Shown here one piece after another: positions 2,522-39,155 of a stretch of DNA of 64,000 nucleotides (position 1 is its first letter; every line of letters begins with the position of its first letter). A model generated the notes under the pieces. It was given only the letters and a program-made list of their open reading frames with translations. It did not search any database and was not told where the DNA came from. Source of the DNA: an uncultured Acidobacteriota bacterium (GTDB lineage: Bacteria > Acidobacteriota > UBA6911). The translations under genes and the position numbers were made by a program. The stretch is taken from NCBI GenBank assembly GCA_963809485.1, contig CAWEJX010000021.1, positions 50,894 to 114,893 of the forward strand, in the 5' to 3' direction.

Positions 2522-3052
2522 TCAGGATTGAGCGCCTTTCAGATATTGCCTCTGAATAATGCCAAGGTGATACCGTTCGTGGCCCAGCATCATGTATCCC
2601 AGAGCACGGACTGAAAATAAGAAATCGGAGACTTTCCCTGCCCTGTCCCACGCCTCTGGAGGGAGATGCCGGAGCATTGATACATGAGATCGGCGGATCA
2701 GCGAGAACTCGTCCAATAGCTCTCCAATGCTATATCGGCCAAAACCACCGTTTCTGACGTACAGCTCTTGATCTGCGAGCTGCAATATTGCTTCATCGCC
2801 CCGGGCAAAACAGAGCAGCCGGTAGCCCAAAATGCGTTCCGTATCCACAATGTGGCCCACGACTTGCCGGATTGTCCACTTTCCGGGCGCATAGCGGGTG
2901 TCCGCCGTAGCCTCACTGATTGCGCCGAAGAGGGCCCCTGTCTCTTCAATCTGCTTAGCCAAAGCCTTTGGCAGGTCAGCTTCAGGCACAAGGTCGATGT
3001 ATCTGCTGTAGCGGGGGTTGTACTCTGAAGCAGCTGGACGCCGTTTATTCAT
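2522..3052 (-). CDS. DinB family protein
   Basis: ORF 2522..3076. An internal ATG at 3052 (MNKRRPAASEYN...) has an AAGGAA upstream. The WTIRQVVGHIVDTERI and HERYHLG histidine motifs are typical of the DinB_2 fold. Confidence 0.65.
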   Translation of the reverse strand: MNKRRPAASEYNPRYSRYIDLVPEADLPKALAKQIEETGALFGAISEATADTRYAPGKWTIRQVVGHIVDTERILGYRLLCFARGDEAILQLADQELYVRNGGFGRYSIGELLDEFSLIRRSHVSMLRHLPPEAWDRAGKVSDFLFSVRALGYMMLGHERYHLGIIQRQYLKGAQS

Positions 3053-3226
3053 AGTATTCCTTTCAAAAATCCACAAAGCGGGCAGGCAGCAATACGGTCT
3101 TGATTATTGCAGGATGGCGAAACAAACAGGAGTTGCTGATGAAATCCCCCAATGCAACCGATCTTCGCGGCTTCTTGCAGGGAGGGCCCGGAATCAATTA
3201 GGCAGCTTATTCCGGCTATCCTTTGC

Positions 3227-5310
3227 CTAGCCCGAGTTTACCACCCGTAGGCGGCAAAATTCCATTTTGATCAGCATTGAAGCCCCTGCAAGCAACATAT
3301 TATGTATGACCTAACTATAATCCATTTATACCTCCACGACGACCGCCTGGCATTGCCGCCAGCCACGCAGTAATATTGTCGCAAAGCACTGAACTATTTC
3401 CTAAGAATATCTTTCTGTAATGCCTAATTTATCAAGACATCCGCATTTCTTTGATACTATATATTGGGCCTTCAGGCAATCTGCACAACAATATCTTGAC
3501 ATCACGAGTAAAATATTGTATGACCTAACCATGGCAAGCTTGACCAAGAAGTTCATCAAGGGAAGGCCCTACTACTACCTGCGGGAGTGCCGCCGTGTGG
3601 GCGGCAAGCCCAAAATCGTCTGGCAGGAATATATCGGCACGCCCCAACAGCTGACCCTGAGGCTCACCAACCCCAGACCCCAGGAAATCATCGTCCGGGA
3701 ATTTGGCGCTTCCGCCGCAACCTTCGATATGGCCCAAAAACTGGAGGTCGTTTCCATTATTGACCGTCACGTCCCCAAGGAGGGGAACCAGGGGCCTTCG
3801 GTCGGCGAGTATCTGCTGGTTGCTTGCCTCAACCGTTGCATGGCGCCCTGCAGCAAGGCGAAAACCGGCGAATGGTATGACAAAACCGTACTTCCCCGCC
3901 TGCTTGGCATCAAGAGTTCCCAGCTTTCCAGCCAGCGCTTCTGGGACAATATGAATCGGGTCAATCAACCGGAAATCGGCAAGATCGAGGCGGATATCTC
4001 CGCAGTCGCGGTATCCCGATTCGGCCTGGACCTGAAATGCCTGCTTTTTGATGCCACCAACTTTTTCACCTTTATCGACAGCTTCAACGATCGGGCGAAA
4101 CTGCCGCAGCGCGGCCATGGTAAAGAAGGGCGGGACAATTTGCGCATTATCGGCTTGGCCCTTTTGGTCACCTCCGACGGCGACGTCCCTCTGTTTCATT
4201 GCACTTACGCGGGCAACCAGCACGACTCGGTGACATTCTCCAGCGTAGCCGAGGATTTGGCTGACCGCTGCCGGAAGCTGTCCGAGGGTGTCTGTGACAT
4301 TACGCTCGTCTTCGACAAGGGGAATAACTCCAAGGAGAACCTGGATGCCGTCAACGCCGGGCCCTACCACTTCGTCGGATCTCTGGTTCCCAGCCAGCAT
4401 CCGCAACTCCTGCGCATCTCTCGAGACGAGATGCATCGATTGGACAAAAGCCTGCTGCCTTCCGTCTGGAGCTACCGAACGCAAAAAGAGGTCTTTGGGA
4501 TCCGGCGTACCGTCTTGGTCACATACAACCGCGAGCTTTACCGGGCACAGGTCAAGACTCTGAGGCGCGAAATCGCAAAACGCCGGCGCAAACTGCAGCA
4601 ACTGCAGCTGTCTCTCCAACGCCATAGCGGTCCGAACTCCCGAGGGAAGAAACCCACGCTGCAGGGAAGCCGCAACCGCGTTCAAAGTATTCTTGCAGGC
4701 CGCCACATGACCCAACTCTTTTCTGCCAAAGTGATCCTGGGCAAGGATCAGATCCCTCGGCTCCGATGGGCTTTCAGAGATCGAGAATGGGATCGATTGG
4801 ATCGAACCCTTCTGGGCAAAACAATCCTGTTCACGGATCGGGAAGAATGGACCGACGAACAGATCGTGTTGGCCTATCGGAGCCAATCTCACGTGGAAGC
4901 AGCATTCCGCCGCATGAAAGATCCCCGGTTCCTTGCCTTCCGTCCCACGCATCATTGGACCGATCAAAAGCTCCGAGTCCATGCTTTTTATTGCGTGCTG
5001 GCTTTAATGATAACGAGCCTGCTATGCCGCAAGCTCGCACAAGCTGGGATCCGCATGAGCATTGCGCGCATGATGGAACGGCTGAAAGACATCAATGAAG
5101 TGGTGAATCTATATCCAACCCCAAAGGGTGCGGAACCGCGCATGCAAGTCGACCTGTCACAACAGGACGCGGAACAAGCCGCCATTCTGAAAGCCCTCGA
5201 TCTGGCTCGGTACGTCTCAAATTAGGTCATACGTTTCGGGATCACTCGCAGCCGCTTCAATACTGATCAAAATGGAATTTTGCCGCCTACAGGTGGTAAA
5301 CTCGGGCTAG
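3227..5310 (+). mobile_element. IS1634-family insertion sequence, apparently intact
   Basis: The 48-bp terminal inverted repeats 3227..3274 and 5263..5310 match at 47 of 48 positions by eye. They enclose a single long transposase ORF. CTAG sits at both outer tips. Confidence 0.8.
3531..5225 (+). CDS. IS1634 family (IS4-like DDE) transposase
   Basis: ORF 3420..5225; likely start MASLTKKFIKGRPYYYLRECRRVGGKPKIVWQEYIG, an N terminus typical of IS1634 transposases. TTGACA-N17-TATGAC lies upstream. Confidence 0.8.
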   Translation: MASLTKKFIKGRPYYYLRECRRVGGKPKIVWQEYIGTPQQLTLRLTNPRPQEIIVREFGASAATFDMAQKLEVVSIIDRHVPKEGNQGPSVGEYLLVACLNRCMAPCSKAKTGEWYDKTVLPRLLGIKSSQLSSQRFWDNMNRVNQPEIGKIEADISAVAVSRFGLDLKCLLFDATNFFTFIDSFNDRAKLPQRGHGKEGRDNLRIIGLALLVTSDGDVPLFHCTYAGNQHDSVTFSSVAEDLADRCRKLSEGVCDITLVFDKGNNSKENLDAVNAGPYHFVGSLVPSQHPQLLRISRDEMHRLDKSLLPSVWSYRTQKEVFGIRRTVLVTYNRELYRAQVKTLRREIAKRRRKLQQLQLSLQRHSGPNSRGKKPTLQGSRNRVQSILAGRHMTQLFSAKVILGKDQIPRLRWAFRDREWDRLDRTLLGKTILFTDREEWTDEQIVLAYRSQSHVEAAFRRMKDPRFLAFRPTHHWTDQKLRVHAFYCVLALMITSLLCRKLAQAGIRMSIARMMERLKDINEVVNLYPTPKGAEPRMQVDLSQQDAEQAAILKALDLARYVSN

Positions 5311-5393
5311 AATTAGGATTGTAATACCGAAGCCTCGTTTTAACGTGGAATTCCTTTGAATATCCCGAAGACCCAGCAGGCTAGTCCATGATT

Positions 5394-6702: not shown

Positions 6703-9384
6703 TTACTTGACCGGGACCCGTTGCTTCAGTTCTTCAAACCAGTTGAGGACGATGGTGATCCTTGGTCGTACAACTTCCTCCGCAGAGGAGGCAGCCCTAG
6801 GCTGTTTTATCATCAGGAATCGTTTGCCATCCGGATGAATGTCCCAAGGGGTTCCTGTATATAGGCCATAGCCAAGATTCTCGTTCTTAAAAAGCATTTT
6901 GGGAGTCTGGAAGCCGAGGGTAGGCTCGGTTTCCACCACCACTGCCATTATGTGATTATCTTCACTTAAATAAAATAATTGCCGCCCATCCGGCGACCAT
7001 AGCGGGCTGGTCCCGCCTTGAGTGGAGGCCGACCATTTTCCGCCGGTCACATCCGGAAATGGACGCACATAGATCTCATTCCGGCCGGACTCGTTGGATG
7101 TATAGGCTATCCATCGGCTATTAGGTGAGATTTTAGGCTGAGTCTCTCCATACTCTGATTGCAGGAGCGGCTTTTTCCAGTGATCCTTTTCCATTGATAG
7201 CATACTAATATCCAAATTCGTCCACGTGACCACTTCCTGCATCAGCAGGGTTTTTCCGTCGTTTGCCCATGAGAATGGGTGCAACTGCCCGTCGGGTGCA
7301 GAAATGACTTTCTCGGCCTCCCCAGTGCCGTCGGCGGCTTTCAGAAACACGCCGTTGGGACTTGCTCCAGCAGTATCGGCCCAATAGGCAATCCATTTGC
7401 CGTCCGGGCTCCAAATGGGCAACATCTCCCGAGTTTTTTCAAAGGTCAGCTTTGTAAGATTCTTGCGTGCAGTGTCCCAGATCCAAATATCCTCATTAGG
7501 AGTATTCCCGACCGAGACAGCCACCCGCTTCCCATCGGGCGAAATCTTGGGATATGCATAAAAATTCGGCGGTGTTCCGAGGGATTCTTCCTTTCCTTCT
7601 TTATCAACCCATACCAGAGTTCGCCTTCCCGCTGGCCCTGCTCCGGTTCGAGGCGGCGTCGGGATATAAACAAGCGTTCCCGATTCGGAAATGTCGGCAA
7701 AGGATACATCATCAAGCAGAGGAACCGGTTCGCCTGCGACCCCTAGTCTGTCAAGATTAAAGGGAATGGCATAAACAGTGGTGATATCGGGCGGCTGATA
7801 AATGAGGTATCCATTTGGAAGATATTGGACAACCTCGCCCGGCAACAGCTCTTTCTGCCCTCCTGATTTTAGCTGCCGAACCATTATTCTTGGTTTCTGA
7901 AAGCCAACATTATATGCGGTGTACAGCAGCGATTTCCCATCCTGCAAAATTTGCGGAGACACAAGATTATCGGATCCTGTTTTGACAAGTGACTCCGGTG
8001 TCCCACCGCCGGCGGGAATTCGCATAATGCCGTTTGGAATCGCGCCAAATACAATCATGTCATCCGCACCCCAACTCGCGCCTGCCATTCCCACCCCGCC
8101 AACGTCACACAATGAAACCGGAGCGCCCCCATTGATCGATATTTTTTTCAATTGCCGATCATCGACAGAGAAGTATCCGATCCATTTGCCGTCGGGGGAG
8201 AAGAACGGCTGCCTTGTATCTCCCTCGCTTCCGGCAATAGGCCTGGAGGTTAATTCGTTTACCGAACGTAGGAACAGTCCCTTTGATGTACTGTAAACGA
8301 ATTGCATGCCGTCCGGCGACACGGCAAGAGGCCGACCGGTGAGTTGCTGGCCATCCGGCAGTTCGTGGTCGAAACGGATAACCTGCCGTGATTCGGGTGC
8401 TCTCCTGTTCCAGATAACCAATCCCACGAGGATCGATGCAATGGCAACTGCGGCAGCAATTCCTAGCATTGAATGGGATCTTCTCCGCGTTTCTGCCATT
8501 CCTAAGGGCTGTGCGAATACGCCGCTAGGATCAGCCAAAACCTTCTGAGCGTCTATCCGAACGTCTGAGATGTCATGATATCGGTCCCTTAATTCTTTCT
8601 TTAGGCAGCGTTCCAATACTTCCCGCAAACGGCCGTGCAGATTCGCCGGAAGGCTGTTCCACTCCGGTTCTGAACGGATGACTGCTGCAAGAGTGTCGGT
8701 CACATCCTTGCCCGAGAACGCCGCACGTCCTGTCACCATCTCGAACAAAACACAGCCAAACGCCCAGATGTCCGTCCGCTTGTCCACGGACTTCCCTCTG
8801 GCCTGTTCTGGGGACATATAGGCCGCCGTGCCAAGAATTACGCCTTGCATGGTGGCCATGTCGCTCAGCGTAGGGGAATTGGATAGATTCAGCTCCACTT
8901 GTTCCCCAGTAAATGCCTTCGCCAATCCAAAGTCCAACACCTTCACTTTTCCTTCAGGCGTGACTTTGATATTGGCAGGCTTGAGGTCGCGGTGGATCAC
9001 TCCCTTTTCGTGCGCAGCTTCGAGAGCCTCCGCGATCTGCAACGCGAGTTTCAGGGATTCTTCAACGGGGACCGGACCCGCTTTTATCCGATCCGCAAGC
9101 GTATCGCCTTCAACCAATTCAAGGATGAGGAAGTTGGTTCTGCCGGATTCCTCCAAGCCATAGATGGCGGCGATGTTCGGGTGATTCAGGGAGGCAAGGA
9201 GTTTCGCTTCACGCTGGAACCGAGCGACACGGTCGGCGTCCTTGGCAAACTCTTCCGGCAGCACCTTGATCGCCACGTCCCGGCCGAGCCTGCTATCTTT
9301 CGCCCGGTAAACCTCGCCCATGCCGCCTTTGCCGATTTTTTCCACAATGCTGTAGTGCGAAAGGCTTTGACCGATTTCGGGCAT
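6703..9384 (-). CDS. Ser/Thr protein kinase with TM segment and TolB/PD40-like beta-propeller C-terminal region
   Basis: 893 aa. Kinase motifs present: GKGGMGEVYRAKD, HRDLKPANI, DFGLAK, SPEQ. A hydrophobic segment (IAAAVAIASILVGLVIW) is followed by repeated SPDGK/WSPDG propeller motifs. Confidence 0.85.
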   Translation of the reverse strand: MPEIGQSLSHYSIVEKIGKGGMGEVYRAKDSRLGRDVAIKVLPEEFAKDADRVARFQREAKLLASLNHPNIAAIYGLEESGRTNFLILELVEGDTLADRIKAGPVPVEESLKLALQIAEALEAAHEKGVIHRDLKPANIKVTPEGKVKVLDFGLAKAFTGEQVELNLSNSPTLSDMATMQGVILGTAAYMSPEQARGKSVDKRTDIWAFGCVLFEMVTGRAAFSGKDVTDTLAAVIRSEPEWNSLPANLHGRLREVLERCLKKELRDRYHDISDVRIDAQKVLADPSGVFAQPLGMAETRRRSHSMLGIAAAVAIASILVGLVIWNRRAPESRQVIRFDHELPDGQQLTGRPLAVSPDGMQFVYSTSKGLFLRSVNELTSRPIAGSEGDTRQPFFSPDGKWIGYFSVDDRQLKKISINGGAPVSLCDVGGVGMAGASWGADDMIVFGAIPNGIMRIPAGGGTPESLVKTGSDNLVSPQILQDGKSLLYTAYNVGFQKPRIMVRQLKSGGQKELLPGEVVQYLPNGYLIYQPPDITTVYAIPFNLDRLGVAGEPVPLLDDVSFADISESGTLVYIPTPPRTGAGPAGRRTLVWVDKEGKEESLGTPPNFYAYPKISPDGKRVAVSVGNTPNEDIWIWDTARKNLTKLTFEKTREMLPIWSPDGKWIAYWADTAGASPNGVFLKAADGTGEAEKVISAPDGQLHPFSWANDGKTLLMQEVVTWTNLDISMLSMEKDHWKKPLLQSEYGETQPKISPNSRWIAYTSNESGRNEIYVRPFPDVTGGKWSASTQGGTSPLWSPDGRQLFYLSEDNHIMAVVVETEPTLGFQTPKMLFKNENLGYGLYTGTPWDIHPDGKRFLMIKQPRAASSAEEVVRPRITIVLNWFEELKQRVPVK

Positions 9385-9645
9385 GTGTCCCTCTGCCGAA
9401 AGAAAGACCTACCTGCTGCCTGGCTGTGCGTTGGAAACTCTGGGGACATTATATGCGGCCAGGGCTGGTGGGAGAAAGGGAAATACTGGTGGGGTGTCTC
9501 CTCTCGCGCTAAGGATATAACGGATTGGCTGCCGCTCCAGCTTAAGGGCCGTCTATCCGAGCTCCGGTGCGCCTGGTTTCACGCATCGAACCGTTGCGGA
9601 TAACATATAATGTGCAATCTTCGATGCTTTGGGGCTATTTGCAGG

Positions 9646-9942
9646 TCAGTGCTGTCCAAATTGGCCCATTGGAAGCAGAGGGCTCATTGAAAGCATTCAA
9701 CTTGTGGCTCATGAAGTGCCCCTGCAAGGACGAGGTTGGCACCAAGCCCCGGTAGGGGCGGAAAGAAAATAGCCAGGGATGAGCGGAGCGAATCCCTGGT
9801 TCCTATGGCGAAGAAAAGAGCCCTGGGAAGGGCGAAAGACTATATGTTATCACGCCCTTCCAGGGCTCTCCTCTTGCCGATTCTCACCAGGGGTTCGCTC
9901 CGCTCACCCCTGGCTATTTTCTGATCGCCCCTTGCGGGGCTT
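9646..9942 (+). repeat. ~295-nt hairpin-rich repeat, copy 1 (inverted partner at 17843..18137)
   Basis: Nearly identical to the reverse complement of 17843..18137. It contains a 30-bp outer stem (agccagggatgagcggagcgaatccctggt / accaggggttcgctccgctcacccctggct) around an inner imperfect hairpin, then a short GC hairpin. Confidence 0.8.
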
Positions 9943-10308
9943 GCTCAAAAAACCTGTTTCGCGACAGTCCTCCATGCGCCCGGGGCGCACCCAAGTGCAT
10001 GAAAATCGGCTTCGCCGACGCTCAGTTGGGTGAACGAATGGTGTAATTGATCCATCGCGGCCGCTATTTTCGGAGCAGAAACGAGCCAATAGCCGTAAAA
10101 CAGTGGCAGGGTGGACTTTAAACAGTCGTGCTGCATCCGCTGCCGTTTTGTTCCCTTTCAGAATCATTGGCCTAATTTCAGATTGCTGCTGATGGGTCAA
10201 CTTAAATCGTCGTCCACCTACGCGTCCTTCTCGACGCGCAGCCTCCAAACCCGCTTTCGTTCGTTCGCGTAGCATTGCCCGCTCAAATTCTGCAAATGCT
10301 CCAACCAT
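9904..10308 (-). pseudogene. serine recombinase (resolvase/invertase) C-terminal remnant
   Basis: Only the AEFERAMLRERTKAGLEAARREGRVGGRR...HTH (AADAARLFKVHPATVLRLL) part is present, at roughly 10078..10308. The catalytic N-terminal domain is missing, and the ORF tail runs into the adjacent repeat. Confidence 0.6.
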
Positions 10309-10567
10309 CTACATCATCATCCTTCCTGCCGGCGTCGTGGTATCGATCGCCTCCGTCAAACTGCGGAAACCTGCTTGCGCTGGACGAGTGGGAAAAAAGC
10401 GGAAACATATTTTCACAAAATTCCCTCCAGTTGAGGCGCGCAGGACTGAAACGGAAATATGGTGGAAATAGTTTTCCATTTATGAAGGACCTATCCTCAA
10501 CAATTCTGCAATTTAGGCGGGAAATCGGTTTGACCGACATTGAAAACGAAATCAAGGCAGGCGTCGC

Positions 10568-10652
10568 TAGTAAAGAATGCTTTACTTTTATCGCTTATTA
10601 GTAAAGAATCCTTTCCCAGTAAGTCAACCTTAGTAAAGTGACCTTTCCCAGG
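10568..10652 (+). promoter_or_regulatory. three direct ~21-bp repeats upstream of fic (iteron/operator-like)
   Basis: The units are tagtaaagaatgctttac (10568), tagtaaagaatcctttcccag (10599) and tagtaaagtgacctttcccag (10631), spaced 31-32 bp. The array ends 9 nt before the fic ATG, and the last unit overlaps the AGGAGG RBS. Confidence 0.5.
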
Positions 10653-10660
10653 AGGCCATT

Positions 10661-11830
10661 ATGGCAAGAGTCGTCGGGACCTATGAGCAAACCAGCACTG
10701 CGGGTGAAACTGTAAATGCCTTTGTGCCGGCGCCACTTCCTCCAGGCAATCCTCCCCTCGATATGAACGCTGAACTCTCGGGATTATTGCAGTGTGCTGA
10801 AGCGGGTATTTCCAGGTTGAAGGTTGCAGGGTCGATGGTCCCGTCTCTGGATTGGCTTCTCTATTCTTTTGTTCGCAAAGAAGCTGTGGTTTCTTCCCAG
10901 ATAGAGGGTACGCAATCAACCCTGGTGGACTTGCTTATGTACGAAGCCGCCGGGAAGGAAGACGCCATCGACGATGGCGATGTCATACAAGTCCGCAACT
11001 ACGTCGACGCTCTTCATTACGCGCGCAAGCAGATGCGCAGCAAAAATGGACTGCCATTGTCCATACGACTCCTCAATGAGGCTCATCGGCGTTTACTGAA
11101 GAACGTTCCCGGTACCGATAGGGCTCCGGGAGAAATCAGGCGGAGCCAGAACTGGCTCGGCGGGACTCGTCCTGGCAATGCAGTATTCGTACCCCCGCCC
11201 CCCTATTTGTTGGGCGGTTTACTCGGCTCTCTGGGAAAATATATCCACGGTGAAGATTCCCTGCATCCATTGGTTAGAGCAGGGCTGTCGCATGTACAAT
11301 TCGAAACGATACATCCTTATCTGGATGGGAACGGCCGCATCGGCAGGCTCCTGATTACATTGCTCCTGGAGCATTGGAGGATTTTGGATTCCCCCCTGCT
11401 CTATTTGAGTCTTTATTTCAAACGCCACCGTGCCGAGTATTACCGCCGGCTGGATGCCGTTCGGACCGATGGTGATTTTGAAGGCTGGGTGAAGTATTTC
11501 CTGGAAGGAGTGGCCGTCATCGCCGACGAAACCGTACTGACAACACAGAAGCTTTTTACCCGGATCGGTGCAGACCGGACCAAAGTACTTTCGGGTGGCT
11601 CTACCTCTGTGGCCGGCATTCGTCTGTTTGAGCTATTGCCCGCTCATCCGATTATCACCGTGGCCGGAGCTGTAAAGTTGCTGGGGACGACAAAGCCAAC
11701 TGCTACCAAAGCCGTAACAGGGCTCGTTGACGCTGGGGTCCTGGTTGAAACGACCGGCCGCCGTCGGGATCGCGCTTTCAGCTACGAGGATTATCTAAAC
11801 CTTCTGCGCGCCGAAACGGAACCGCTTTAA
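10661..11830 (+). CDS. Fic family protein (AMPylase-type Fic/DOC domain with C-terminal wHTH)
   Basis: Fic motif HPYLDGNGRIGRLL, an N-terminal inhibitory-type motif SSQIEGT, and a strong RBS. Confidence 0.9.
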   Translation: MARVVGTYEQTSTAGETVNAFVPAPLPPGNPPLDMNAELSGLLQCAEAGISRLKVAGSMVPSLDWLLYSFVRKEAVVSSQIEGTQSTLVDLLMYEAAGKEDAIDDGDVIQVRNYVDALHYARKQMRSKNGLPLSIRLLNEAHRRLLKNVPGTDRAPGEIRRSQNWLGGTRPGNAVFVPPPPYLLGGLLGSLGKYIHGEDSLHPLVRAGLSHVQFETIHPYLDGNGRIGRLLITLLLEHWRILDSPLLYLSLYFKRHRAEYYRRLDAVRTDGDFEGWVKYFLEGVAVIADETVLTTQKLFTRIGADRTKVLSGGSTSVAGIRLFELLPAHPIITVAGAVKLLGTTKPTATKAVTGLVDAGVLVETTGRRRDRAFSYEDYLNLLRAETEPL

Positions 11831-11890
11831 AGGCGAGTTCCAATGCAGGAATAAAAGCACACATTCCTGCCGCGCTTCCCCACGGGTCCT

Positions 11891-12334
11891 TTGATCCAAT
11901 TTGGAAGTACTCATTCAACTTCCGCTAATGTTACTGAAATCAGCAAACCCGATCTCATCACGATGAAAATATGCGCCTGGCGGGAAGCTGACAAAGAAGA
12001 TATCGAGGCGCTCGGAATTTCCAAGGAGGATCTGACGATTATCAATGCCAACCTGGCGCATGTCGAAAAACATAGCTCCGACCGGGCGCATAAAGCGCAC
12101 CTTGTTCTATCTGAACTGGGTGTCCAGGAATTGATAATTTTGAAGGCCGACGAAGTAATAAGCCTTGCCGAATTGATTCAGTACTATCGTCAGCATAAAA
12201 AGAAAGAAGCTTCCATTGAAGAAATTCGCAATTGGAAACAGGAAATCGAAAAAGGGATTAAGCCCTCTTCCTTAGCTCAATCCATTTTTGAAGGCAAACA
12301 AAAAGAGGATTCTTCAATTTATGGAGAAATTTAG
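11891..12334 (+). CDS. hypothetical protein (possibly a nucleotidyltransferase-like fragment)
   Basis: TTG-started 147-aa ORF. The segment DLITMKICAWREADKEDIEAL weakly recalls the C-terminal parts of MNT/AbiEii-type nucleotidyltransferases. Its stop lies 1 nt before the next ATG. Confidence 0.35.
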   Translation: MIQFGSTHSTSANVTEISKPDLITMKICAWREADKEDIEALGISKEDLTIINANLAHVEKHSSDRAHKAHLVLSELGVQELIILKADEVISLAELIQYYRQHKKKEASIEEIRNWKQEIEKGIKPSSLAQSIFEGKQKEDSSIYGEI

Positions 12335-12335
12335 C

Positions 12336-13043
12336 ATGAACAGCGAACCCTTATTTTCAATGTGGGCAAGGCTTGGGGTGAACTTCCCTGCCTTTAAGCC
12401 GACCAAAGAGGAACCGCTTGTCGAGGACCTCATTGCTCAGACATCGCTCATCGGGAGATATGAGCCCCGCCTCATCGAAGGTATGGCCGGATGGCTGCAG
12501 AAACATGGGGATTTGGTTAACACCTCTCTTATGCGGAGGCATATTGAGATCGGCGATTCCGCCGTGATCGGTTTGGTGTTCGATGCTATAACCGGTAAAG
12601 AGACCGCCAAGCTGAAGCAGCTTACAAAATATTGCCGCCCCAAAAAGAAAGCAGAAATGCTTTTCTTTGCGACGGAATCGTCCCCGACGATGAAAGCGCA
12701 GGCTGTCGAGCACGAAACCGAAATTAACCGGAAATGGAATCTGCTTTATGTGAGTTTGCGAGTTAAGACGGATGCTGTTTTCGACCGCAAAGTGGTTCTG
12801 AAGAGAAATCCAAACCTTGCCCGCAGATCTCTATTCGGAGTCGTAATGCGTACGGAGATCCTGAATTTTCTACTACAGAAAGGATCAAGTTTTCCGGCGG
12901 AAATATCAAAGGCACTGGGCTATCGATATCACAGGGTTATTTCCGACCCGTTTCGCGCAGAACACGCCTCCACATGTCCAGAGAGAATACCCCCATGGTC
13001 CAGTGATCGGTCTCAATCCGAAGGCGTCCGTGTTCGCGAATGA
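12336..13043 (+). CDS. hypothetical protein, possible wHTH near the C terminus; 3' end overlaps a convergent gene
   Basis: Starts MNSEPLFSMW one nt after the upstream stop. The last ~35 codons are antisense to methyltransferase 12937..13638, which suggests the native 3' end has been replaced. Confidence 0.4.
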   Translation: MNSEPLFSMWARLGVNFPAFKPTKEEPLVEDLIAQTSLIGRYEPRLIEGMAGWLQKHGDLVNTSLMRRHIEIGDSAVIGLVFDAITGKETAKLKQLTKYCRPKKKAEMLFFATESSPTMKAQAVEHETEINRKWNLLYVSLRVKTDAVFDRKVVLKRNPNLARRSLFGVVMRTEILNFLLQKGSSFPAEISKALGYRYHRVISDPFRAEHASTCPERIPPWSSDRSQSEGVRVRE

Positions 13044-13638
13044 GATACAGGATCGTCGTTTCGTACTGCTCATCCGTGGGGTCGGGGTCATACACGTTCT
13101 CGATGAAGACAACGTCCACTCCCTCCCGCGTGGCCGGGGTGGTGCTGGTCTTGTTTTGCTGGAACGTCTCGGTCGTCACGTCCGGAGTAGCAACCAGGAT
13201 GCCGCCAGGGTTCAGATGGGCGTGTGCGGTGCGGAACGCTGCCACAAAGTCTGTCCGGCACCTCATGTGTGAGATCGCGTCGTCCATGAGCACGGCATCA
13301 AAAGTCCTGCCGAGTCTGCACGTCCGCATATCGTCCTGGACAAACGTGCACTCGGGATTCAGTTCCTTCGCCTGCGCAAGCATGGCGGCACTTAGATCGA
13401 CACCGGTGACGTTGAACTGCCGCTTCAGGTTCAGGACGGTCTTCCCGCCCCCGCACCCTATGTCCAGCAATGTGGTTGCCGGGCGCCTGGCGTGCTGACG
13501 GATCAGACCCGTGACGTGTTGGCAGTAGTGCGCGTATTCAGTGGCGGCATTGCCCCACATAGGCCAAAGCCACGCCAAGTCCGTATAGAGCCGGCAGGTA
13601 TCTTGCATCTCTCTTCTCATGCCGAACGCCTGAGTCAT
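12937..13638 (-). CDS. class I SAM-dependent methyltransferase
   Basis: ORF 12937..13773. The plausible start is MTQAFGMRRE at 13638, because the upstream part of the ORF is repeat sequence. SAM motif LLDIGCGGG. Confidence 0.75.
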   Translation of the reverse strand: MTQAFGMRREMQDTCRLYTDLAWLWPMWGNAATEYAHYCQHVTGLIRQHARRPATTLLDIGCGGGKTVLNLKRQFNVTGVDLSAAMLAQAKELNPECTFVQDDMRTCRLGRTFDAVLMDDAISHMRCRTDFVAAFRTAHAHLNPGGILVATPDVTTETFQQNKTSTTPATREGVDVVFIENVYDPDPTDEQYETTILYLIREHGRLRIETDHWTMGVFSLDMWRRVLRETGRK

Positions 13639-13641
13639 GTG

Positions 13642-13831
13642 CCTCCGGCAAAGCCGAAAGCTTGAAAGATTTGAACCGCTCAAAGCGGTTGGACTAGTTA
13701 CGCCGGTCTTGAACGCTGACTTACGCCGACCCTCGCCCAACAAATCGGCGTTTGTCAGCGCTTTTATCAGCATTTCTCAGCGTTTCAAAACACGAAGCTG
13801 TCAAACTCTTTTGAGTCCCCCGGCAGAGCCG
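13642..13831 (+). repeat. ~200-bp multi-hairpin repeat family, copy A (short form, 10-nt internal deletion)
   Basis: Shares the following with the copies at 29958, 39156, 44499, 45707 (reverse) and 58143 (reverse): cctccggcaaagccg..ggaaccgctcaaagcggttgga..gaacgctgac..cgccgaacaaatcggcg..tgtcagcgcttttatcagcgtttctcagcgttt..ctgtcaaactctttgagtcccccggcagagccg. Confidence 0.85.
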
Positions 13832-13859
13832 TGGACGATCCGCCGGATGCGCCGACGCA

Positions 13860-14606
13860 TCACCGCGGCATCAGCGCGAACACACCCCAGCCCAGGTATT
13901 CACGCGTGTAAGCGGCGTAGCGCTCGGGTTCCGAGGTCAGTTTGGCTCGAACATCTTTCGCGAACTCGTCGCCGGGGTTGGCTTCAAGCCATCGGCGCAT
14001 GGTGAGCCATTTGGCCGCCTCGTATCTGTCCCAGCCGTCCTGGTCAGCCAAAACCATTTCAACGACGTCGTAGCCAAGGCGGCCGAAAGACGCGAGAAGC
14101 TCCGGAAGCATGAGATAGTCGGAGATTGAGTTGGCAAGACATCCCTTGGCAACCTCTTCCGTCGGCGGTAACTGCCGCCAGTAGGGCTCGCCGATGAGGA
14201 TGATCCCTCCTGGGCGCAGGCTCCGCGCCAGAAGCTCGATAGTGCCGGCGACTCCACCGGCGATCCAGGTGGCACCGACACAGGCTGCCACACTGACCTT
14301 CTCGTCAGAGACATAGCCGGCAGCATCGCCATGGATGAACTTGACTTGATCGGCGACGCCGAGTTCTACAGCACGGAGTTTCGCTTGCTCGGTGTACAAC
14401 TGGCTCATGTCGATGCCTGTGCCGATGACGCCGTGATCGCGTGCCCAGGTGCACAGCATCTCCCCCGAACCGCTGCCGAGGTCGAGCACTCGGGCTCCCG
14501 ATTCCAGACGCAGCGCCGCGCCGAGAGTGGCGAGCTTTTCGGGTGTGATCGGGTTGTGGATGCGGTGAGCACTCTCAGTGATGTTGAATATCCGCGGGAT
14601 GTCCAT
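13860..14606 (-). CDS. class I SAM-dependent methyltransferase
   Basis: ORF 13860..14720. The start MDIPRIFNI at 14606 has a GGAG RBS. SAM motif VLDLGSGSGE. Confidence 0.8.
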   Translation of the reverse strand: MDIPRIFNITESAHRIHNPITPEKLATLGAALRLESGARVLDLGSGSGEMLCTWARDHGVIGTGIDMSQLYTEQAKLRAVELGVADQVKFIHGDAAGYVSDEKVSVAACVGATWIAGGVAGTIELLARSLRPGGIILIGEPYWRQLPPTEEVAKGCLANSISDYLMLPELLASFGRLGYDVVEMVLADQDGWDRYEAAKWLTMRRWLEANPGDEFAKDVRAKLTSEPERYAAYTREYLGWGVFALMPR

Positions 14607-14642
14607 TGTGAAAAATCTCCTTACGGGTGTGAATAGATCCGG

Positions 14643-14697
14643 CCAGGTCCTAACCTGGATTATACAGAACTTGAGAAATAATTCGCTAGGTGAATAG
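14643..14697 (-). promoter_or_regulatory. conserved promoter/leader block, copy A (shared with 19183..19237)
   Basis: About 45 of 60 ungapped positions are identical (by eye) to the region upstream of the cupin gene. The block contains a TATAAT (complement of 14659..14664) and the small palindrome ccaggttaggacctgg. Confidence 0.5.
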
Positions 14698-15015
14698 CGC
14701 TGGTGTACCAGGAATCCCAATTGCCTGGATAGCCATTAATATTTGAATCACGCTCAACGATCTCAGCCACTGAAAGACCTCAAATAGGAGTAAAATGTTT
14801 TTGGTAATCCTCAAAGGCAGGGGGATCCGTGAAGTGAGTCACTATCGTTATCCAATCATCGAAGCTGAAGGCGAGCGCATGCGGAAGGCGTTCACCTATA
14901 GCAATTGGCACTTCAGGATCTGTTTGGCGTTGATGATCATTGGAGTATTTTGCATTATATCTTCTCATTCTCGGGCAGGTCTATTGTTCATGGCCGTATC
15001 GGTCTGCATCTATCT

Positions 15016-15645
15016 TTATCCCTTCCAGTGGAAGAATGCTTTGAAGAAGCCTTTGGGGAAATAGAGCTGGGGGGGCACGAATTCTACCCTGGAGTATCCG
15101 ATGTGCCCCATGCAAATTAGTTTTTTCAGCATTGGTGAGATCTCTGCAAACCACAGAGGCACGCCGTTGGAATCCAGTTCGATGCGAACGGTGTCCCCGC
15201 CCACCGCCGCCGTGTAGTAAGGATCCTGATCCATGATCGGACGAGTTGAGTCCAGCCTGGCGTGCGTGATAAGGACGTGATCCGTCTCAAACACAGCCGG
15301 CAGTTGTTCCAGGAAGCATGCCCAATGATCCCAGTCCTCCTTCGGCAGCAACGAGAGAGTTTGTTCCCGGCTCCAGGCCGGCTTGCTGGTGCCGCGAATT
15401 GTCCCGGCGACTCGCCGTTCATGATTTCCGAGCGCGCTGAAAGCATTTGGCAAATCGCGAAAGAAGGCAGCCGCTTTCCAGGAATCTGGGCCACGATCGA
15501 GAAAGTCCCCGACCGTGACTAATGCATCTCGCGCCCCAAAGTTGACAAGATGGCATAGTTCCTGGAACTCCACGTAGCAGCCGTGGATGTCTCCAACAAC
15601 AATCGCACGGTCAAATCCGCCGCATGCATGGCTATACGATTTCAT
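15016..15645 (-). CDS. metallophosphoesterase (PPP-family Ser/Thr phosphatase / ApaH-like)
   Basis: Motifs VVGDIHGC, GDFLDRGPDS and GNHE are present. It lies 43 bp downstream of the ATPase gene on the same strand. Confidence 0.8.
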   Translation of the reverse strand: MKSYSHACGGFDRAIVVGDIHGCYVEFQELCHLVNFGARDALVTVGDFLDRGPDSWKAAAFFRDLPNAFSALGNHERRVAGTIRGTSKPAWSREQTLSLLPKEDWDHWACFLEQLPAVFETDHVLITHARLDSTRPIMDQDPYYTAAVGGDTVRIELDSNGVPLWFAEISPMLKKLICMGHIGYSRVEFVPPQLYFPKGFFKAFFHWKG

Positions 15646-15688
15646 GAACTGAAATTAGTCCCATTTCCAAAAAGCAGAACGAAATCAA

Positions 15689-17020
15689 CTATTCGCTATA
15701 GACAAGAGAAGTAGGTGCGGAGAGCAAAAACTCCTCTAAGGTGACTCCGGTTACTTGCTTTGACCTGAACGGCGATCTGCAAATGACCGTTAGGTGGTCG
15801 CGCGGAAAAATCCTGGAAAACCAGCTGAAGTCCATTGGACTGGCTTTCCCCCTTTTGACTTCAATGAAATCTCTATCAGGAGTTACAAAATCAATCTCGT
15901 GCTCCTTCGAAGCCCAGAAACCTATTGCTTCCGGATTAGACCTCCCTCCAAGGACGCATCGTCGCCATATTTCCTGCGCCACCAGCCATTCCATAAAAAC
16001 TCCTTGTATGTCCGGTAAAAGGTCTTCGAATTCGTGAACATACCTCAGAGAGGACGGGTGAAACGCGATGGCAACTGCCAGGTTGATGAAATTGAACTTG
16101 CAGGGCTTCCGCATAAGTACGGTTCTCTTGTTGGTATCAATCGGCCATGAGGGCATGACCGATAAAAGATCGGAGAGCTGTTCGATGTATCCACTGGCTA
16201 CCGTGTTGTTGGCAAGCCCCCCATCGCGGGCGAGTTTCGCAAATCCGACGGTGTTACCGCCGTTGTTCATGATGACGTGCAACAACCGGATTAAAGACAG
16301 CCTTTTTCTTCCGGATGAAACGACTTCTCCCAAAACCCAGTCGCGCACGATCTGGATAAAATATTCAGGAAGCCGCTCAAATTGACATATGTCATTGCAG
16401 GCAACCGGGGAACCTCCGGTCAGCAGATATGCGATCCAGGATTTCTCTCCATGAATCTCTTGAGCATTCAAATTGAATTCCCTATAGGAGATTGGAAGGA
16501 AAATATATTCATTCTTTGACAATTTTCCTTTCCTGCCGGGAAGCTTCTCCGAGCCGTGGCGAAGATCGGACGCCGTTGAACCGGTCGTGATGATGAGGAC
16601 ATCCCTAAAAAGTCCCCGGTCGATCACCCGCTTTACGGCTTTTTCCCAGGCCGGTACGGCCGTTATCTCATCGATAAATAGTCGCTTGATTCCGACGTCT
16701 CTGGAATAGGAGGCATACAGGTTGGTCAATTCCAGATCCAGTTCATCCGCAGAGGCAATTTCGTCGCCATTTAAATAATAGGAAGAACCTTTCCCGAATT
16801 CCTCTGCCGACTGTCGCAGGTTCATGTCGAGCCACGTGCTCTTGCCGTATTGGCGTGGTCCACGGATGATGATAAGCCCCGGTTCTGTCGGAAGTTCGTT
16901 CAGCCCGAATTCGAAACGAAACTGATGAGCTTTGGATTCCAATTCAATGATCCGAGGCCACATGTCATCGCGATCGATGTTTCCTTGCGCCAGCAGCTGA
17001 TTGATTGTCTTAACGTCCAT
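15689..17020 (-). CDS. AAA-family ATPase with DUF4143-like C-terminal domain
   Basis: 443 aa with Walker A GPRQYGKST and Walker B-like LFIDEIT. The C-terminal HEIDFV...IEVKRGK segment is typical of AAA_14/DUF4143 proteins (from memory). Confidence 0.75.
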   Translation of the reverse strand: MDVKTINQLLAQGNIDRDDMWPRIIELESKAHQFRFEFGLNELPTEPGLIIIRGPRQYGKSTWLDMNLRQSAEEFGKGSSYYLNGDEIASADELDLELTNLYASYSRDVGIKRLFIDEITAVPAWEKAVKRVIDRGLFRDVLIITTGSTASDLRHGSEKLPGRKGKLSKNEYIFLPISYREFNLNAQEIHGEKSWIAYLLTGGSPVACNDICQFERLPEYFIQIVRDWVLGEVVSSGRKRLSLIRLLHVIMNNGGNTVGFAKLARDGGLANNTVASGYIEQLSDLLSVMPSWPIDTNKRTVLMRKPCKFNFINLAVAIAFHPSSLRYVHEFEDLLPDIQGVFMEWLVAQEIWRRCVLGGRSNPEAIGFWASKEHEIDFVTPDRDFIEVKRGKASPMDFSWFSRIFPRDHLTVICRSPFRSKQVTGVTLEEFLLSAPTSLVYSE

Positions 17021-17034
17021 AGCGTTAATATACC

Positions 17035-17051
17035 TAACGTTTCAAACGTTA
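17035..17051 (-). promoter_or_regulatory. palindromic operator-like site upstream of the ATPase gene
   Basis: taacgtttcaaacgtta lies 15 nt upstream of the ATG. The same palindrome is conserved upstream of the deleted paralog at 23138..23154. Confidence 0.45.
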
Positions 17052-17073
17052 GCAACTGGATATCCTTTTAGCC

Positions 17074-17655: not shown

Positions 17656-17842
17656 CAGTAATTTCTCAGATCGGGGGAGTTACTGGAATTTCATGTCTCC
17701 GGAAGTTCGGCTGTATGTCCAAGTGAAAACATCATTCTTATGTCCCGGGACGCCTCTCGGCAGTGTTATAATTTGCGCATGGATTCTCCAAATCTCAAGG
17801 CATATAAGAACTCACTCTTGTCCAAATTAGCTTTCGATTTCT

Positions 17843-18137
17843 AAGGGCCGGAGGCCCGGCAGATAACAGCCAGGGGTGAGCGCAGCGAACCCCTGGTAGG
17901 AATTGGCAATAGAAAGAGCCCTGGAATGCGTGATAGGATATAGTCTTTCGCCCTTCCCAGGGCTCTTTTCTTCGCCATAGGAACCAGGGATTCGCTCCGC
18001 TCATCCCTGGCTATTCTCTTTCCGCCCCTACCGGGGCTTGGTGCCAACCTCGTCCTTGCAGGGGCACTTCATGAGCCACAAGTTGAATGCTTTCAATGAG
18101 CCCTCTGTTTCCAATGGGCCAATTTGGACAGCACTGA
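17843..18137 (-). repeat. ~295-nt hairpin-rich repeat, copy 2 (inverted relative to 9646..9942)
   Basis: The reverse complement matches copy 1 with only 2 differences over roughly the first 195 nt (by eye). The 3' hairpin arm is more diverged, and the element ends in a different short GC hairpin (gggcctccggccc). Confidence 0.8.
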
Positions 18138-29906: not shown

Positions 29907-29957
29907 AATTTCGCTCCAGCAAACACCCGCAGTATCGCGGGAATATGGAGTCAGGTA

Positions 29958-30350
29958 CCTCCGGCAAAGCCGGAGACTTGAAAGATTGGAACCGCTCAAA
30001 GCGGTTGGACTAGTTACGCCGGTCTTGAACGCTGACTTACGCGGGCAAAAGCCGATGAGGCGCCTCCGATCCCCGCAGGGGCCAGCGCTCCGCGCTGGAC
30101 AGTTTTCTGCGGCGGCACTGTGGCAAGCGCCGTGCGGCAAGGAGATGAAGGGTATGAGAAACCGGGCGTTTGCCACAGTGCCGCCGCAGAAAACTCCATC
30201 GGAAGCGCCTCATCGGCTTTTGCTCGCCGACCTTCGCCGAACAAATCGGCATTTGTCAGCGCTTTTATCAGCGTTTCTCAGCGTTTCAAAATACGGAGCT
30301 GTCAAACCCTTTGAGTCCCCCGGCAGAGCCGGAGGTTTACCAATGTAATT
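29958..30350 (+). repeat. ~200-bp repeat family, copy B (long form with ~175-bp nested palindromic insert)
   Basis: Same ends as copy A. The insert at 30046..30230 has 25-bp outer and 31-bp inner inverted arms. The copy ends in gtttaccaatgtaattattggtaaac. Confidence 0.85.
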
Positions 30351-30372
30351 ATTGGTAAACGGAATAAAGGGC

Positions 30373-39097: not shown

Positions 39098-39155
39098 CCC
39101 AATGGGGGATCCACCGGCCGTGCCGGTGAAGCAGTATCAGTTTGACAGTCAGGCA

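Follow-up and report, generated by a model that had tools for sequence, protein, structure and literature searches.

A probable IS4-family-derived MITE carrying a REPIN-like doublet in the genome of an uncultured Acidobacteriota bacterium

Introduction

The closest described systems to the repeat considered here are the bacterial MITEs, the IS4 family of insertion sequences and the REP sequences that accompany Y1 transposases. Elements of the IS4Sa subgroup are 1150-1750 bp long, have ends of the form CA------T and generate direct repeats of 8-10 bp (Table 1, PMC2266710). REPs of other bacteria are reported to influence termination and mRNA stability, and Y1 transposases with long inverted repeats on either side are described for Acidobacteria (PMC3733652).

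A stretch of 64,000 nucleotides (the window) from the genome of an uncultured Acidobacteriota bacterium was analyzed and compared with 30 genomes of the genus; this genome, which carries both of the copies discussed below, is referred to as the window genome, and G006 (of the same genus), G009, G012, G015 and G016 are labels of compared genomes. A preliminary description of the window had noted a nested hairpin at 9646-9942, and had offered three readings of it: it could resemble a MITE, form one end of a larger mobile unit or encode a structured RNA. The repeat is very probably a non-autonomous MITE derived from the IS4 family, with the REPIN-like doublet inside it a passenger from another mobile system. 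The element is ordinary gene-less mobile DNA rather than a new RNA gene, and only its chimeric architecture is mildly novel.

Results

Copies, ends and target duplications

The preliminary description had reported two inverted copies, and the inverted arms were indeed found (9646-9923 and 17860-18137, 278 nt, 92% complementary), but the element is not confined to these two. The window genome contains five long copies (A to E), one short copy of 143 bp (F) and fragments, and all of its MITE copies are intergenic; copies A and B correspond to the copies 1 and 2 described previously. G006 holds approximately 16 or more copies, with at least 13 full-length matches and 61 end matches there versus three for a reversed control pattern. 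The MITE was found in two of the 30 genomes of the genus. It has no coding capacity, as the only ORFs that overlap it are translations of the palindrome, just as had been noted. Size forms of 139-145, 210 and 314-325 bp occur; the canonical length is approximately 325 bp, as represented in full by copy B (17813-18136, minus strand).

The TIRs CAGTGCTGTCCAAATT / CACTCTTGTCCAAATT are found in four long copies of the window genome, in short copy F and in the G006 copies. Perfect 9-bp duplications flank 12 of the 13 G006 copies for which both ends were located (for example ATGAAAAAT, GAAAAAAAT, ATATTCAAT and AGGCCGGAT), and copy F has the perfect duplication TTTTCATAT. The duplications of copies E and D are degenerate (8/9 and 7/9 matching positions, respectively), and the flanks of copies A, B and C contain no target duplication. 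Clean empty sites were found in the window genome for at least three of the G006 insertions (L046, L052 and L054). The filled site at L046 reads ...gcAGTGGCAAC[324 bp]AGTGGCAACacg... and its empty counterpart in the window genome (C12:75192-75272) reads ...gcAGTGGCAACacg...; each empty site contains one copy of the 9-bp target, with one or two substitutions at L052 and L054. Alignments to the window genome were likewise obtained for the joined flanks of three further G006 insertions (L040, L042 and L049), at a divergence too high for the target to be read.

The short forms of 139-145 bp, which lack the whole palindrome, are also flanked by perfect duplications and have transposed. These and the 210-bp form would be internal deletion derivatives that still transposed after the deletion.

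The IS4-family partner

A 1530-bp IS with matching ends was found intact, with 9-bp duplications, in G015 and G009. The two copies in G015 are identical, with the duplications ACTCCAGAT and TGTTTGTAT and the ends CATATCTGTCCAAATTAGCT / CACTGCTGTCCAAATTAGCT. Its 393-aa transposase (L089 1632-2813 in G015) matches the IS4-family model NF033592 at 265 bits (cut-off 115), contains the domains DUF4372 and DDE_Tnp_1 (PF01609, 96.6 bits) and has the motif YKDRWAVELFFKAVK, i.e., Y(2)R(3)E(6)K. An IS end in G006 is identical to the right end of the MITE over 22 of 22 nt. The ends CAGTGCTGT, CACTCTTGT and CATATCTGT, together with the 9-bp repeat, have the IS4-family feature of 5'-CA ends and direct repeats of approximately 8-13 bp. 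The partner fits an IS4Sa-like element, a putative subgroup placement made by end consensus and repeat length only. Intact partner transposase genes are absent from the window genome and from G006, in both of which just fragments with stop codons are found, and the link to the partner therefore rests on congeners. The MITE-like option of the preliminary description was thus borne out by the TIRs, by target duplications of 9 bp, by orthologous sites that are empty and by an IS4-family IS with the same ends.

Two other relationships were considered and rejected. An IS1-family IS has its own ends (GGTGCTTCTGCC... / ...GGAAGGACC, seven copies aligned), which are unrelated to the MITE. Nor does the MITE interior, beyond the ends of approximately 20 nt, appear to be a deleted IS: when the 120-nt left part of the MITE was globally aligned with the right end of the G015 IS, the score was 68, versus 65 +/- 6 for shuffles. 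Two incidental resemblances were seen. A sequence that resembles the MITE end, CACTGCTGTCCAAATTAGCG, occurs at C16:25541, and a gene for a 354-aa transposase of the IS1 family (NF033558, E = 1e-18) follows it after 170 bp. The short motif GAGGTTG is the sole one shared by the left part of the MITE and the G015 IS at comparable positions relative to the end.

The MITE would be mobilized by an IS4-type DDE transposase, supplied in trans, that recognizes the 16-22-bp TIRs (CAGTGCTGTCCAAATTGGCC... / ...AGCTAATTTGGACAAGAGTG). Cut-and-paste transposition of the unit of approximately 325 bp, with a 9-bp staggered cut at the target, would yield the 9-bp duplication. As the window genome lacks both an intact IS4 partner and a RAYT gene flanked by the MITE-type REP unit, its MITE copies are most likely immobile relics.

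Copies A and B

Copy B (17813-18136) is intact, and copy A (9647-9943) is without its right end. The boundaries given in the preliminary description required adjustment: the element starts not at 9646 and 18137 but at 9647 and 18136 (CAGTG...), and copy B ends not at 17843 but at 17813, with the right TIR ...AATTTGGACAAGAGTG. That the two copies have just two differences across their first 190 nt or so was confirmed. The uncompensated changes in the 3' arm had been taken for decay of copy B; instead, it is copy A that has the foreign arm. The 3' arm of copy B, the canonical form, matches those of three other copies in the window genome and 12 in G006.

Copy B is a complete 324-bp MITE (17813..18136, minus strand) that can be aligned over its entire length with copies C, D and E and with the 12 copies from G006. 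It has both TIRs, the neighboring ORFs end at 17655 (+) and 18321 (-), and its flanks, TATCAGAAT and AGTTCTTAT, show no target duplication. The left TIR (18121..18136, minus strand, CAGTGCTGTCCAAATT) equals the IRR of the G015 IS4-family element (CACTGCTGTCCAAATTAGCT) except at position 3, and the right TIR (17813..17828, plus strand, reading inward CACTCTTGTCCAAATT) is identical at 22 of 22 nt to the G006 IS end CACTCTTGTCCAAATTAGCTTT. Between them lies the REPIN-like doublet (17868..18012, unstranded), with inverted REP cores (HpB) at 17868-17896 (-) and 17984-18012 (+); these correspond to the pattern matches C21:68761-68789(-) and C21:68877-68905(+).

The genuine MITE part of copy A (9647..9853, plus strand) has two differences from copy B. 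It is comprised of the left inverted repeat (9647-9662), a unique subterminal part of approximately 85 nt, the central loop and the left REP unit, which contains HpC' (9746-9759), an ATAG tag (9769-9772), HpB' (9773-9799, with a core pattern match at C21:60664-60692(-)) and HpA' (9820-9833). The 3' arm (9854..9943, plus strand) is a REP unit of a different lineage, with HpA at 9854-9866, HpB at 9887-9913 and HpC at 9927-9940, and no right inverted repeat follows it, the left one being the only one that copy A retains. This arm is 79-80% identical to the 3' arms of copies B to E, 94% identical to a solo unit at C19:30898-30987 and 86-87% identical to C15:201472-201560. Together with the sequence that follows it (9854-10085), the arm is homologous to C15:201472-201702 (85%), a block that includes an unrelated dispersed repeat of approximately 135 nt (GTTTCGCGACAGTCC...GGAGCAGAAAC; 9950..10085, unstranded) that abuts copy A. 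The dispersed repeat has seven copies in the window genome (89-98% identity), each adjoining a REP-type hairpin cluster. Beyond it, a resolvase remnant (10086..10308, minus strand) borders the rearranged side of copy A; in the ORF at 9904-10308 (-), residues 1-29 alone match the last 29 positions of the Pfam Resolvase model PF00239.

Copy A would be a 3'-truncated recombinant with a 3' arm from another repeat lineage. Its right end was probably lost via recombination between the inner REP unit of the MITE and a resident REP unit attached to the other repeat.

The inner palindrome and the Y1 transposases

The palindrome of copy A has 89-nt arms (9743-9831 and 9855-9943) that are 80% complementary and separated by a 23-nt spacer; the 30-bp outer stem, with one A.C mismatch and one G.U pair, is as previously described. 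The palindrome of approximately 180 nt is a REPIN-like doublet, a module in its own right that the preliminary description had not recognized, and is composed of two inverted REP units of approximately 95 nt, each with three hairpins: HpA (GCCC-loop-GGGC), HpB ((G/A)TAG-CCRGGGG-N13-CCCCYGG) and the GC hairpin HpC. HpB is a 27-nt palindrome whose tag is ATAG in the MITE-borne and most of the dispersed copies, and GTAG in two units beside a gene in G012. It covaries across genomes, with pair 3-25 being AT in 82 and GC in 10 cases, and pair 7-21 GC in 86 and AT in 8.

REP cores number 60 in G012, 53 in G006 and 13 in the window genome (none with a control pattern); for a REPIN population, a range of 13-60 units in a genome is modest. 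Doublets are also found in G012 and G015.

The G012 gene with GTAG-tagged neighbors is that genome's only Y1 transposase gene (L149 1408-1854(-)), and it lies between inverted full units at 1329-1358(-) and 1946-1974(+). The same arrangement is seen in a Phycisphaerae MAG, where inverted units (2921-2949(-) and 3530-3558(+)) lie on either side of a Y1 gene (L119 2990-3442(-)). None of the four Y1 genes of the window genome, nor the three of G006, is flanked by a MITE-type REP unit. The RAYT-like gene of the window genome (C15:225537-225983, 50% identical) has another kind of REP on its flanks, built to the same architecture. The G012, Phycisphaerae and window-genome proteins all pass only the IS200/IS605 model NF033573 (56-78 bits, cut-off 55). 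Against the RayT model NF047646 (cut-off 80) the Phycisphaerae and window-genome proteins score 20.9 and 21.6 bits, respectively, and the G012 protein gives no match; for this reason they are described here as RAYT-like or TIRYT-like, rather than as RayT. The REP unit belongs to a mobile system other than that of the MITE ends, and is presumably copied by the single-copy Y1/HUH (RAYT-like) transposase that it flanks.

An alternative is that the palindrome arose inside the MITE by inverted duplication, with the similar units elsewhere descending from the MITE. This would be consistent with the location of 10 of the 13 REP cores of the window genome inside MITE copies, and with the existence of the palindrome-free short forms. 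However, the units are distributed far more widely (at least seven genomes of the genus, other families of the class and Planctomycetota MAGs) than the MITE itself, and they flank Y1 genes in both G012 and the Phycisphaerae MAG. In G015 the same doublet lies within a different repeat of approximately 370 bp with unrelated ends, and the short MITE forms keep the outer hairpin of the left unit, HpC', as deletion derivatives would. An origin by inverted duplication is very unlikely in light of these observations, and acquisition of the doublet as a passenger, through insertion into a MITE or through capture as the MITE arose, is preferred.

The region between copies A and B

The inverted copies could also be the ends of a composite transposon of approximately 8.5 kb (9647-18136), with the outward-facing left inverted repeats as its termini. 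Both of these repeats are intact, and the segment enclosed by the copies is a patchwork of accessory genes (for Fic, methyltransferases and an AAA ATPase, with the resolvase remnant). However, the outer flanks, TTTGCAGGT to the left of copy A and ATTCTGATA to the right of copy B (plus strand), do not form a 9-bp duplication, and they are joined in none of the 30 genomes of the genus. The homologues of the left flank, in G016 and G009, match it precisely up to the boundary of the MITE and are followed by sequence that is absent from the window genome (the downstream sequence of G016 has no counterpart here), and the right flank has no homologue in the genomes of the genus. The inner side of copy A is moreover a recombinant junction with another repeat block, which suggests rearrangement instead of composite transposition. 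The composite transposon was rejected on these grounds and is left with very little probability; the option of the preliminary description that the hairpin was the end of a larger unit is likewise not supported.

The structured-RNA question

In the remaining reading, the hairpin is the functional product of a duplicated non-coding RNA gene or cis-regulatory RNA, such as a bidirectional terminator or an sRNA. The predicted fold is very stable (MFE -179.4 kcal/mol versus -108.6 +/- 5.5 for shuffles, z = -12.8), two pairs of HpB covary across genomes, one terminator-like hairpin with a T-tract is present at each of 9833-9820(-) and 17950-17963(+), and the effects of REPs reported elsewhere on termination and mRNA stability (PMC3733652) would be compatible with such a role. 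However, the opposite strand folds equally well (-179.6 kcal/mol, z = -14.1), as expected for a DNA palindrome, and compensation is almost absent from the MITE copies: across the 15 long ones, breaking changes affect 28 of the 100 consensus pairs and double-sided changes affect three. The HpB covariation is equally expected for an ssDNA hairpin recognized by a Y1 transposase. No Rfam family reached its gathering threshold anywhere in the window; with the limit relaxed to E<=1, the strongest hits were to generic hairpins of miRNA precursors, with only a third of the score required for gathering, led by a plant miRNA hairpin model with 39 bits versus a gathering score of 124. Terminator and promoter scans gave no excess above shuffles, and no tRNA or tmRNA was found within the window. 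The palindrome-free forms of 139-145 bp transposed with perfect duplications, and the TIRs, 9-bp duplications, empty sites and matching IS explain the copies by transposition. The structured-RNA option of the preliminary description is not supported by these results and is very unlikely.

Discussion

What might have been taken for a new structured RNA is replaced by a documented mobile element with defined boundaries, ends, a 9-bp duplication and an IS4-family partner. The 8-kb accessory segment is not the interior of a composite transposon delimited by the two copies in the window, and the spurious ORFs that automatic gene callers draw across these palindromes are now explained.

The REP doublet in a DDE-type MITE is a small, concrete case of modular exchange among bacterial repeat families. 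Similar modularity is seen in the doublet within the 370-bp G015 repeat and in the REP units that abut the 135-nt repeat of the window genome. The inner REPIN could be a hitch-hiker, i.e., a normally Y1-dependent repeat that lies between IS4-type ends and owes its spread to a DDE transposase, both to and inside genomes that have no transposase of its own; we regard this as a speculative and rather unlikely proposition. In a stronger version, the palindrome may be retained for the benefit of the MITE, e.g., by pairing its ends through a cruciform or hairpin, or by insulating neighboring genes as a two-way terminator. REP/Y1-transposase systems are usually considered to be vertically inherited. 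That near-identical REP cores occur in MAGs of both Acidobacteriota and Planctomycetota is a hint that such systems may spread horizontally.

The MITE resembles bacterial MITEs such as Nezha, Correia/NEMIS, RUP and MITEAba12 (PMC3733652, PMC6382973, PMC10969869) in its size (143-325 bp), lack of genes, TIRs and fixed-length duplication. It is also like them in being intergenic, in folding into a long hairpin and in its probable mobilization in trans by an IS with matching ends. It differs in having an IS4Sa-like parent from uncultured Acidobacteriota, and an interior that is a REP doublet rather than a deleted IS. None of the named MITE families, compared outside ISfinder, matches the present element. 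Relative to IS4Sa (De Palmenaer, Siguier and Mahillon 2008, PMC2266710), the CA------T ends are shared, the 9-bp duplication falls within 8-10 bp and the 1530-bp partner within 1150-1750 bp, the YREK motif is present and NF033592 is passed.

The doublet has the organization of REPINs and their RAYTs (Bertels and Rainey 2011, PMC3116915; PMC3337134): two inverted REPs with a spacer that form one long hairpin, units inverted around a single-copy Y1/HUH gene and tens of dispersed copies per genome. Here, however, the units are approximately 95 nt long with three hairpins, whereas known REPs are approximately 25-35 nt; copies number in the tens, not hundreds; NF047646, the RayT model, is not passed by the transposases; and the doublet lies inside a DDE-type MITE in a genome without the cognate transposase.

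The GTAG-tagged REPs of Di Nocera, De Gregorio and Rocco 2013 (PMC3733652) share with these units a palindrome that follows a GTAG-type tag (here ATAG in most dispersed copies) and an occurrence as monomers, dimers and clusters, and the TIRtron/TIRYT systems share Y1 transposases between long inverted repeats. The motif GGGGWSAS given there is fitted by GGGGTGAG in part of the present copies; the species and sequences differ. A MITE of Porphyromonas gingivalis (PMC4596501) is likewise occupied by a repeat of another kind, rather than by an IS remnant; its cargo is a tandem minisatellite, whereas that of the element described here is an inverted REP doublet.

Copies and boundaries of the element

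The preliminary description reported an inverted repeat in two copies, and window positions 9646-9923 and 17860-18137 are inverted copies of each other, 92% complementary over 278 nt. Within the first lies a palindrome whose 89-nt arms (9743-9831 and 9855-9943; 80% complementary) are separated by a 23-nt spacer. The first description of the small hairpins and of the 30-bp outer stem, with its single A.C mismatch and single G.U pair, was confirmed. A count across the whole genome of the Acidobacteriota bacterium (the own genome; a 6.04-Mb assembly of 21 contigs, 55.6% G+C, with the window at C21:50894-114893) revealed further copies, all copies being intergenic: the long copies A (from C21:60540, window 9647), B (C21:68706-69029, minus strand, window 17813-18136), C (C7:187307-187626), D (C21:167271-167593) and E (C20:1273772-1274093), the short copy F (C7:173756-173898; 143 bp), and several fragments. 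The end first proposed for the element was about 45 nt short: an alignment of the five long copies showed that this additional stretch is common to B, C, D and E, which terminate in ...GCCGGGCCTCCGGCCCTTAGAAATCGAAAGCTAATTTGGACAAGAGTG. The element ends are the inverted repeats CAGTGCTGTCCAAATTGGCC and CACTCTTGTCCAAATTAGCT, the right one of which is missing from copy A.

The palindrome is a REPIN-like doublet, an inverted pair of REP units of about 95 nt with three hairpins each. HpA (GCCC-loop-GGGC) is followed by a spacer of about 20 nt, HpB (CCRGGGG-N13-CCCCYGG) by CTATTTTC, and HpC is a GC hairpin; when the other strand is read, ATAG precedes HpB. A further multi-hairpin repeat family (D1/D2, I3-I5) occupies window positions 13633-13831, 29949-30352, 39147-39356, 44490-44698 and 58144-58312.

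Evidence for transposition

Copy F carries a perfect 9-bp duplication, TTTTCATAT, on both sides; the duplication matches at 8/9 positions for E and 7/9 for D, and no target duplication was found at A, B or C. The congener MAG CAYYTC01 (Acidobacteriota; G006) holds at least 13 full-length copies with 81-97% identity, its sequence matched the end pattern 61 times (versus 3 with the reversed control), and perfect 9-bp duplications were present in 12 of the 13 copies with both ends located. The unoccupied sites of three G006 insertions (L046, L052 and L054) are present in the own genome with a single 9-bp target. For L046, the occupied site reads ...ctgcAGTGGCAAC[324 bp]AGTGGCAACacgtg... and the empty site (own genome, C12:75192-75272) reads ...ctgcAGTGGCAACacgtg...; for L040, L042 and L049 the joined flanks could be aligned in the own genome, at a divergence too great for a clean reading of the target. 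Judged from these sequences, the element is a transposon.

Perfect duplications were found in all size classes (314-325 bp, 210 bp and 139-145 bp). The 210-bp form has a deletion between two CCAGGG direct repeats in the palindrome arms. As the short forms retain the counterpart of HpC in the left unit, their origin as deletion derivatives of the long form is favoured over insertion into a short form, although the direction is not proven. One G006 copy (L044, G006:C78:14952-15654) contains a nested insertion of about 115 bp, which is bounded by inverted repeats of its own (TACGGGGCGTCATAA and TACGTAGCGTCATAA), shows a TA duplication and looks like an IS630/Tc1-type MITE within the MITE.

The IS4-family partner

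One end in G006 (G006:C12:1-166) runs into an RBS and the start of an ORF, not into MITE sequence. With this stretch as query across the genus, a complete insertion sequence of 1530 bp was recovered in two identical copies from the MAG CAVYJF01 (G015), with ends CATATCTGTCCAAATTAGCT and CACTGCTGTCCAAATTAGCT and 9-bp duplications ACTCCAGAT and TGTTTGTAT. Its 393-aa transposase scored 265 bits on the NCBIfam model for IS4 family transposases (NF033592; cut-off 115), comprises the Pfam domains DUF4372 and DDE_Tnp_1, and displays the Y(2)R(3)E(6)K motif as YKDRWAVELFFKAVK. With its CA------T ends and 9-bp repeat, the insertion sequence resembles subgroup IS4Sa, which accommodates both features (Table 1 of PMC2266710). 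The right end of the MITE is identical to the G006 insertion-sequence end at 22/22 nt; past about 20 nt, no derivation of the MITE interior from the insertion sequence was detectable. Intact copies of the partner were found in G015 (three) and the congener G009 (one), and none in the own genome or G006, which hold just fragments with stop codons; the ends of the own-genome relic have diverged too. The MITE is now orphaned in its own genome.

The inverted repeats, 9-bp duplications, empty sites and an IS4-family insertion sequence with matching ends bear out the initial suggestion of a MITE-like element: it is a real, multi-copy, once-mobile IS4-family MITE carrying a REPIN-like doublet.

An IS1-family insertion sequence, which adjoins a look-alike end on C16, was rejected as the partner because its own ends are different. 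This insertion sequence (ends GGTGCTTCTGCCGTCGACTGTTG and GGTCCTTCCGYCAYCTACTGTTG, 354-aa transposase) has about seven copies in the own genome (C16:25828-26889, C20:4516-5568, C20:518144-519127, C20:1045862-1046914, C7:194452-195438 and others), two of them apparently frameshifted. Another insertion sequence, at window 3218-5319, has 75-nt inverted ends (88% complementary) unrelated to those of the MITE, and a 601-aa DDE_Tnp_1 transposase.

Alternative interpretations

A structured RNA had also been proposed. Folded as RNA, copy 1 reached -179.4 kcal/mol, versus -108.6 +/- 5.5 for shuffles (z = -12.8), and its opposite strand reached -179.6 (z = -14.1); such equal folding of both strands is expected of a DNA palindrome. 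Two covarying pairs with G.T intermediates were observed in the HpB stem among 104 cores (the pattern around HpB) from five genomes: pair 3-25 (A-T 82 / G-C 10) and pair 7-21 (G-C 86 / A-T 8). This covariation shows selection on a hairpin, and a Y1 transposase recognising a hairpin in single-stranded DNA accounts for it no less well than an RNA. Across the MITE family, the consensus fold of 15 long copies has 100 pairs, with breaking changes in 28 and a double-sided change in 3, which is a pattern of neutral decay. An Rfam search of the window returned nothing meaningful, and terminator-like and promoter-like sites showed no excess over shuffles. The Rfam result, the like folding of both strands and the broken pairs argue against a structured RNA.

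The proposal that the element is the end of a larger mobile unit, with A and B bounding a composite transposon, is not supported, as their outer flanks share no duplication and no relative was found in which those flanks are joined.

Copy A as a probable recombinant

The few differences first noted between the 5' parts of the two copies amount to 2 positions over the left ~205 nt of A and B. The 3' arm of A has about 80% identity to its counterpart in B-E, 94% to a solo unit at C19:30898-30987 and 86-87% to C15:201472-201560. The C15 homology extends to window 10085 via a separate dispersed repeat of about 135 nt (window 9950-10085; C8:357218-357350, C6:26609-26740, C8:88669-88804, C12:59174-59312, C20:4057-4182 and C15:201568-201702). 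Its seven own-genome copies (89-98% identity) run GTTTCGCGACAG...GGAGCAGAAAC (also given as GTTTCGCGACAGTCC...TATTTTCGGAGCAGAAAC), with TA after the right end in five. A REP-type hairpin cluster always adjoins the left side, with three different REP types represented among these clusters; the repeat may be another MITE or a REP-targeting element. Beyond the repeat beside copy A lies a resolvase remnant. The simplest reading of copy A is a recombinant, in which the inner REP unit of the MITE would have recombined with a resident REP unit joined to the ~135-nt repeat, an event that would also have removed any duplication and the right-hand inverted repeat.

At window 9346-9646, about 260 nt upstream of a Ser/Thr kinase gene (6703-9384, minus strand) are 76% conserved in the congeners G016 and G009, with up to 13 partial matches in a third, G010, and this homology stops exactly at the MITE boundary. 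This region is possibly a leader, either dispersed or linked to paralogues.

The REP unit as a separate module

Palindrome-only or single-arm matches were found in many MITE-less genomes of the genus and in other families of the class. When the arm-core pattern was scanned across one genome per species, it was found in MAGs of Acidobacteriota and of Phycisphaerae/Phycisphaerales and Gemmatales (Planctomycetota); a Dehalococcoidia chromosome gave one isolated core match without the surrounding unit. Near-identical cores occur in Acidobacteriota and Planctomycetota MAGs (L106, Gemmatales JBBRUN01; L100-L141, Phycisphaerae DATKPA01), and the loop variant TGGAGCGAAGCGGAA is common to the Gemmatales doublet (L106) and G015. 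Either horizontal transfer of a REP/Y1-transposase system or mis-binning could account for this cross-phylum sharing.

Ten of the 13 cores in the own genome lie within MITE copies, and its four Y1 genes all lack flanking units of the MITE-borne type. G006 has 53 cores, roughly half inside MITE copies (by contig position), the remainder being a distinct free subtype, GCTTCGCT. The doublet also lies within a different G015 repeat of about 370 bp (L056-L065, e.g. G015:C7:660159-660745), whose ends (...ATTAGGGTAAACCGCCGCC... and ...CCACCCGCTCTGCGGGTGGAGTGTTCATT) are unrelated to those of the MITE; as these have subterminal hairpins and lack inverted repeats, the repeat resembles a PATE of the IS200/IS605 type. 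Two distinct non-autonomous elements thus carry the doublet.

The 150-aa Y1/HUH transposase gene of a Phycisphaerae MAG lies between two inverted units, as does the only Y1 transposase gene of the complete chromosome OY761556.1 (G012, same genus), where the tag is GTAG; that chromosome contains 60 cores (versus 0 control matches), many as inverted pairs. These two transposases and one from the own genome are 48-50% identical to one another. The general IS200/IS605 model was the sole model passed by all three: the Phycisphaerae and own-genome proteins failed the NCBI RayT model (about 21 bits versus 80) and the G012 protein had no match to it, and they are therefore termed RAYT-like. Arrays of another REP, CCCGGCCTTGAAAGGCCGGGCTAAAATCAT, flank the own-genome RAYT-like gene (C15:225537-225983; L143, 1309-2396); this REP shares the three-hairpin layout of the MITE-borne unit and differs from it in sequence. 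The inverted flanking units are about 98 nt, with four tandem copies upstream, and this resident family runs CCGTCGCTCACGCGACGG ... CCCGGCCTTGAAAGGCCGGGCTAAAATCAT ... GGCCGCTACGCGGCC.

No name for the MITE family was found in the sources checked, and its kind is already known; the chimeric architecture, a REPIN-like doublet inside an IS4-family MITE, is a modest novelty. By their layout, the units around Y1 genes constitute a REP/REPIN-RAYT arrangement (PMC3116915), and they are close to the TIRtron/TIRYT elements reported for Acidobacteria by Di Nocera et al. (PMC3733652).
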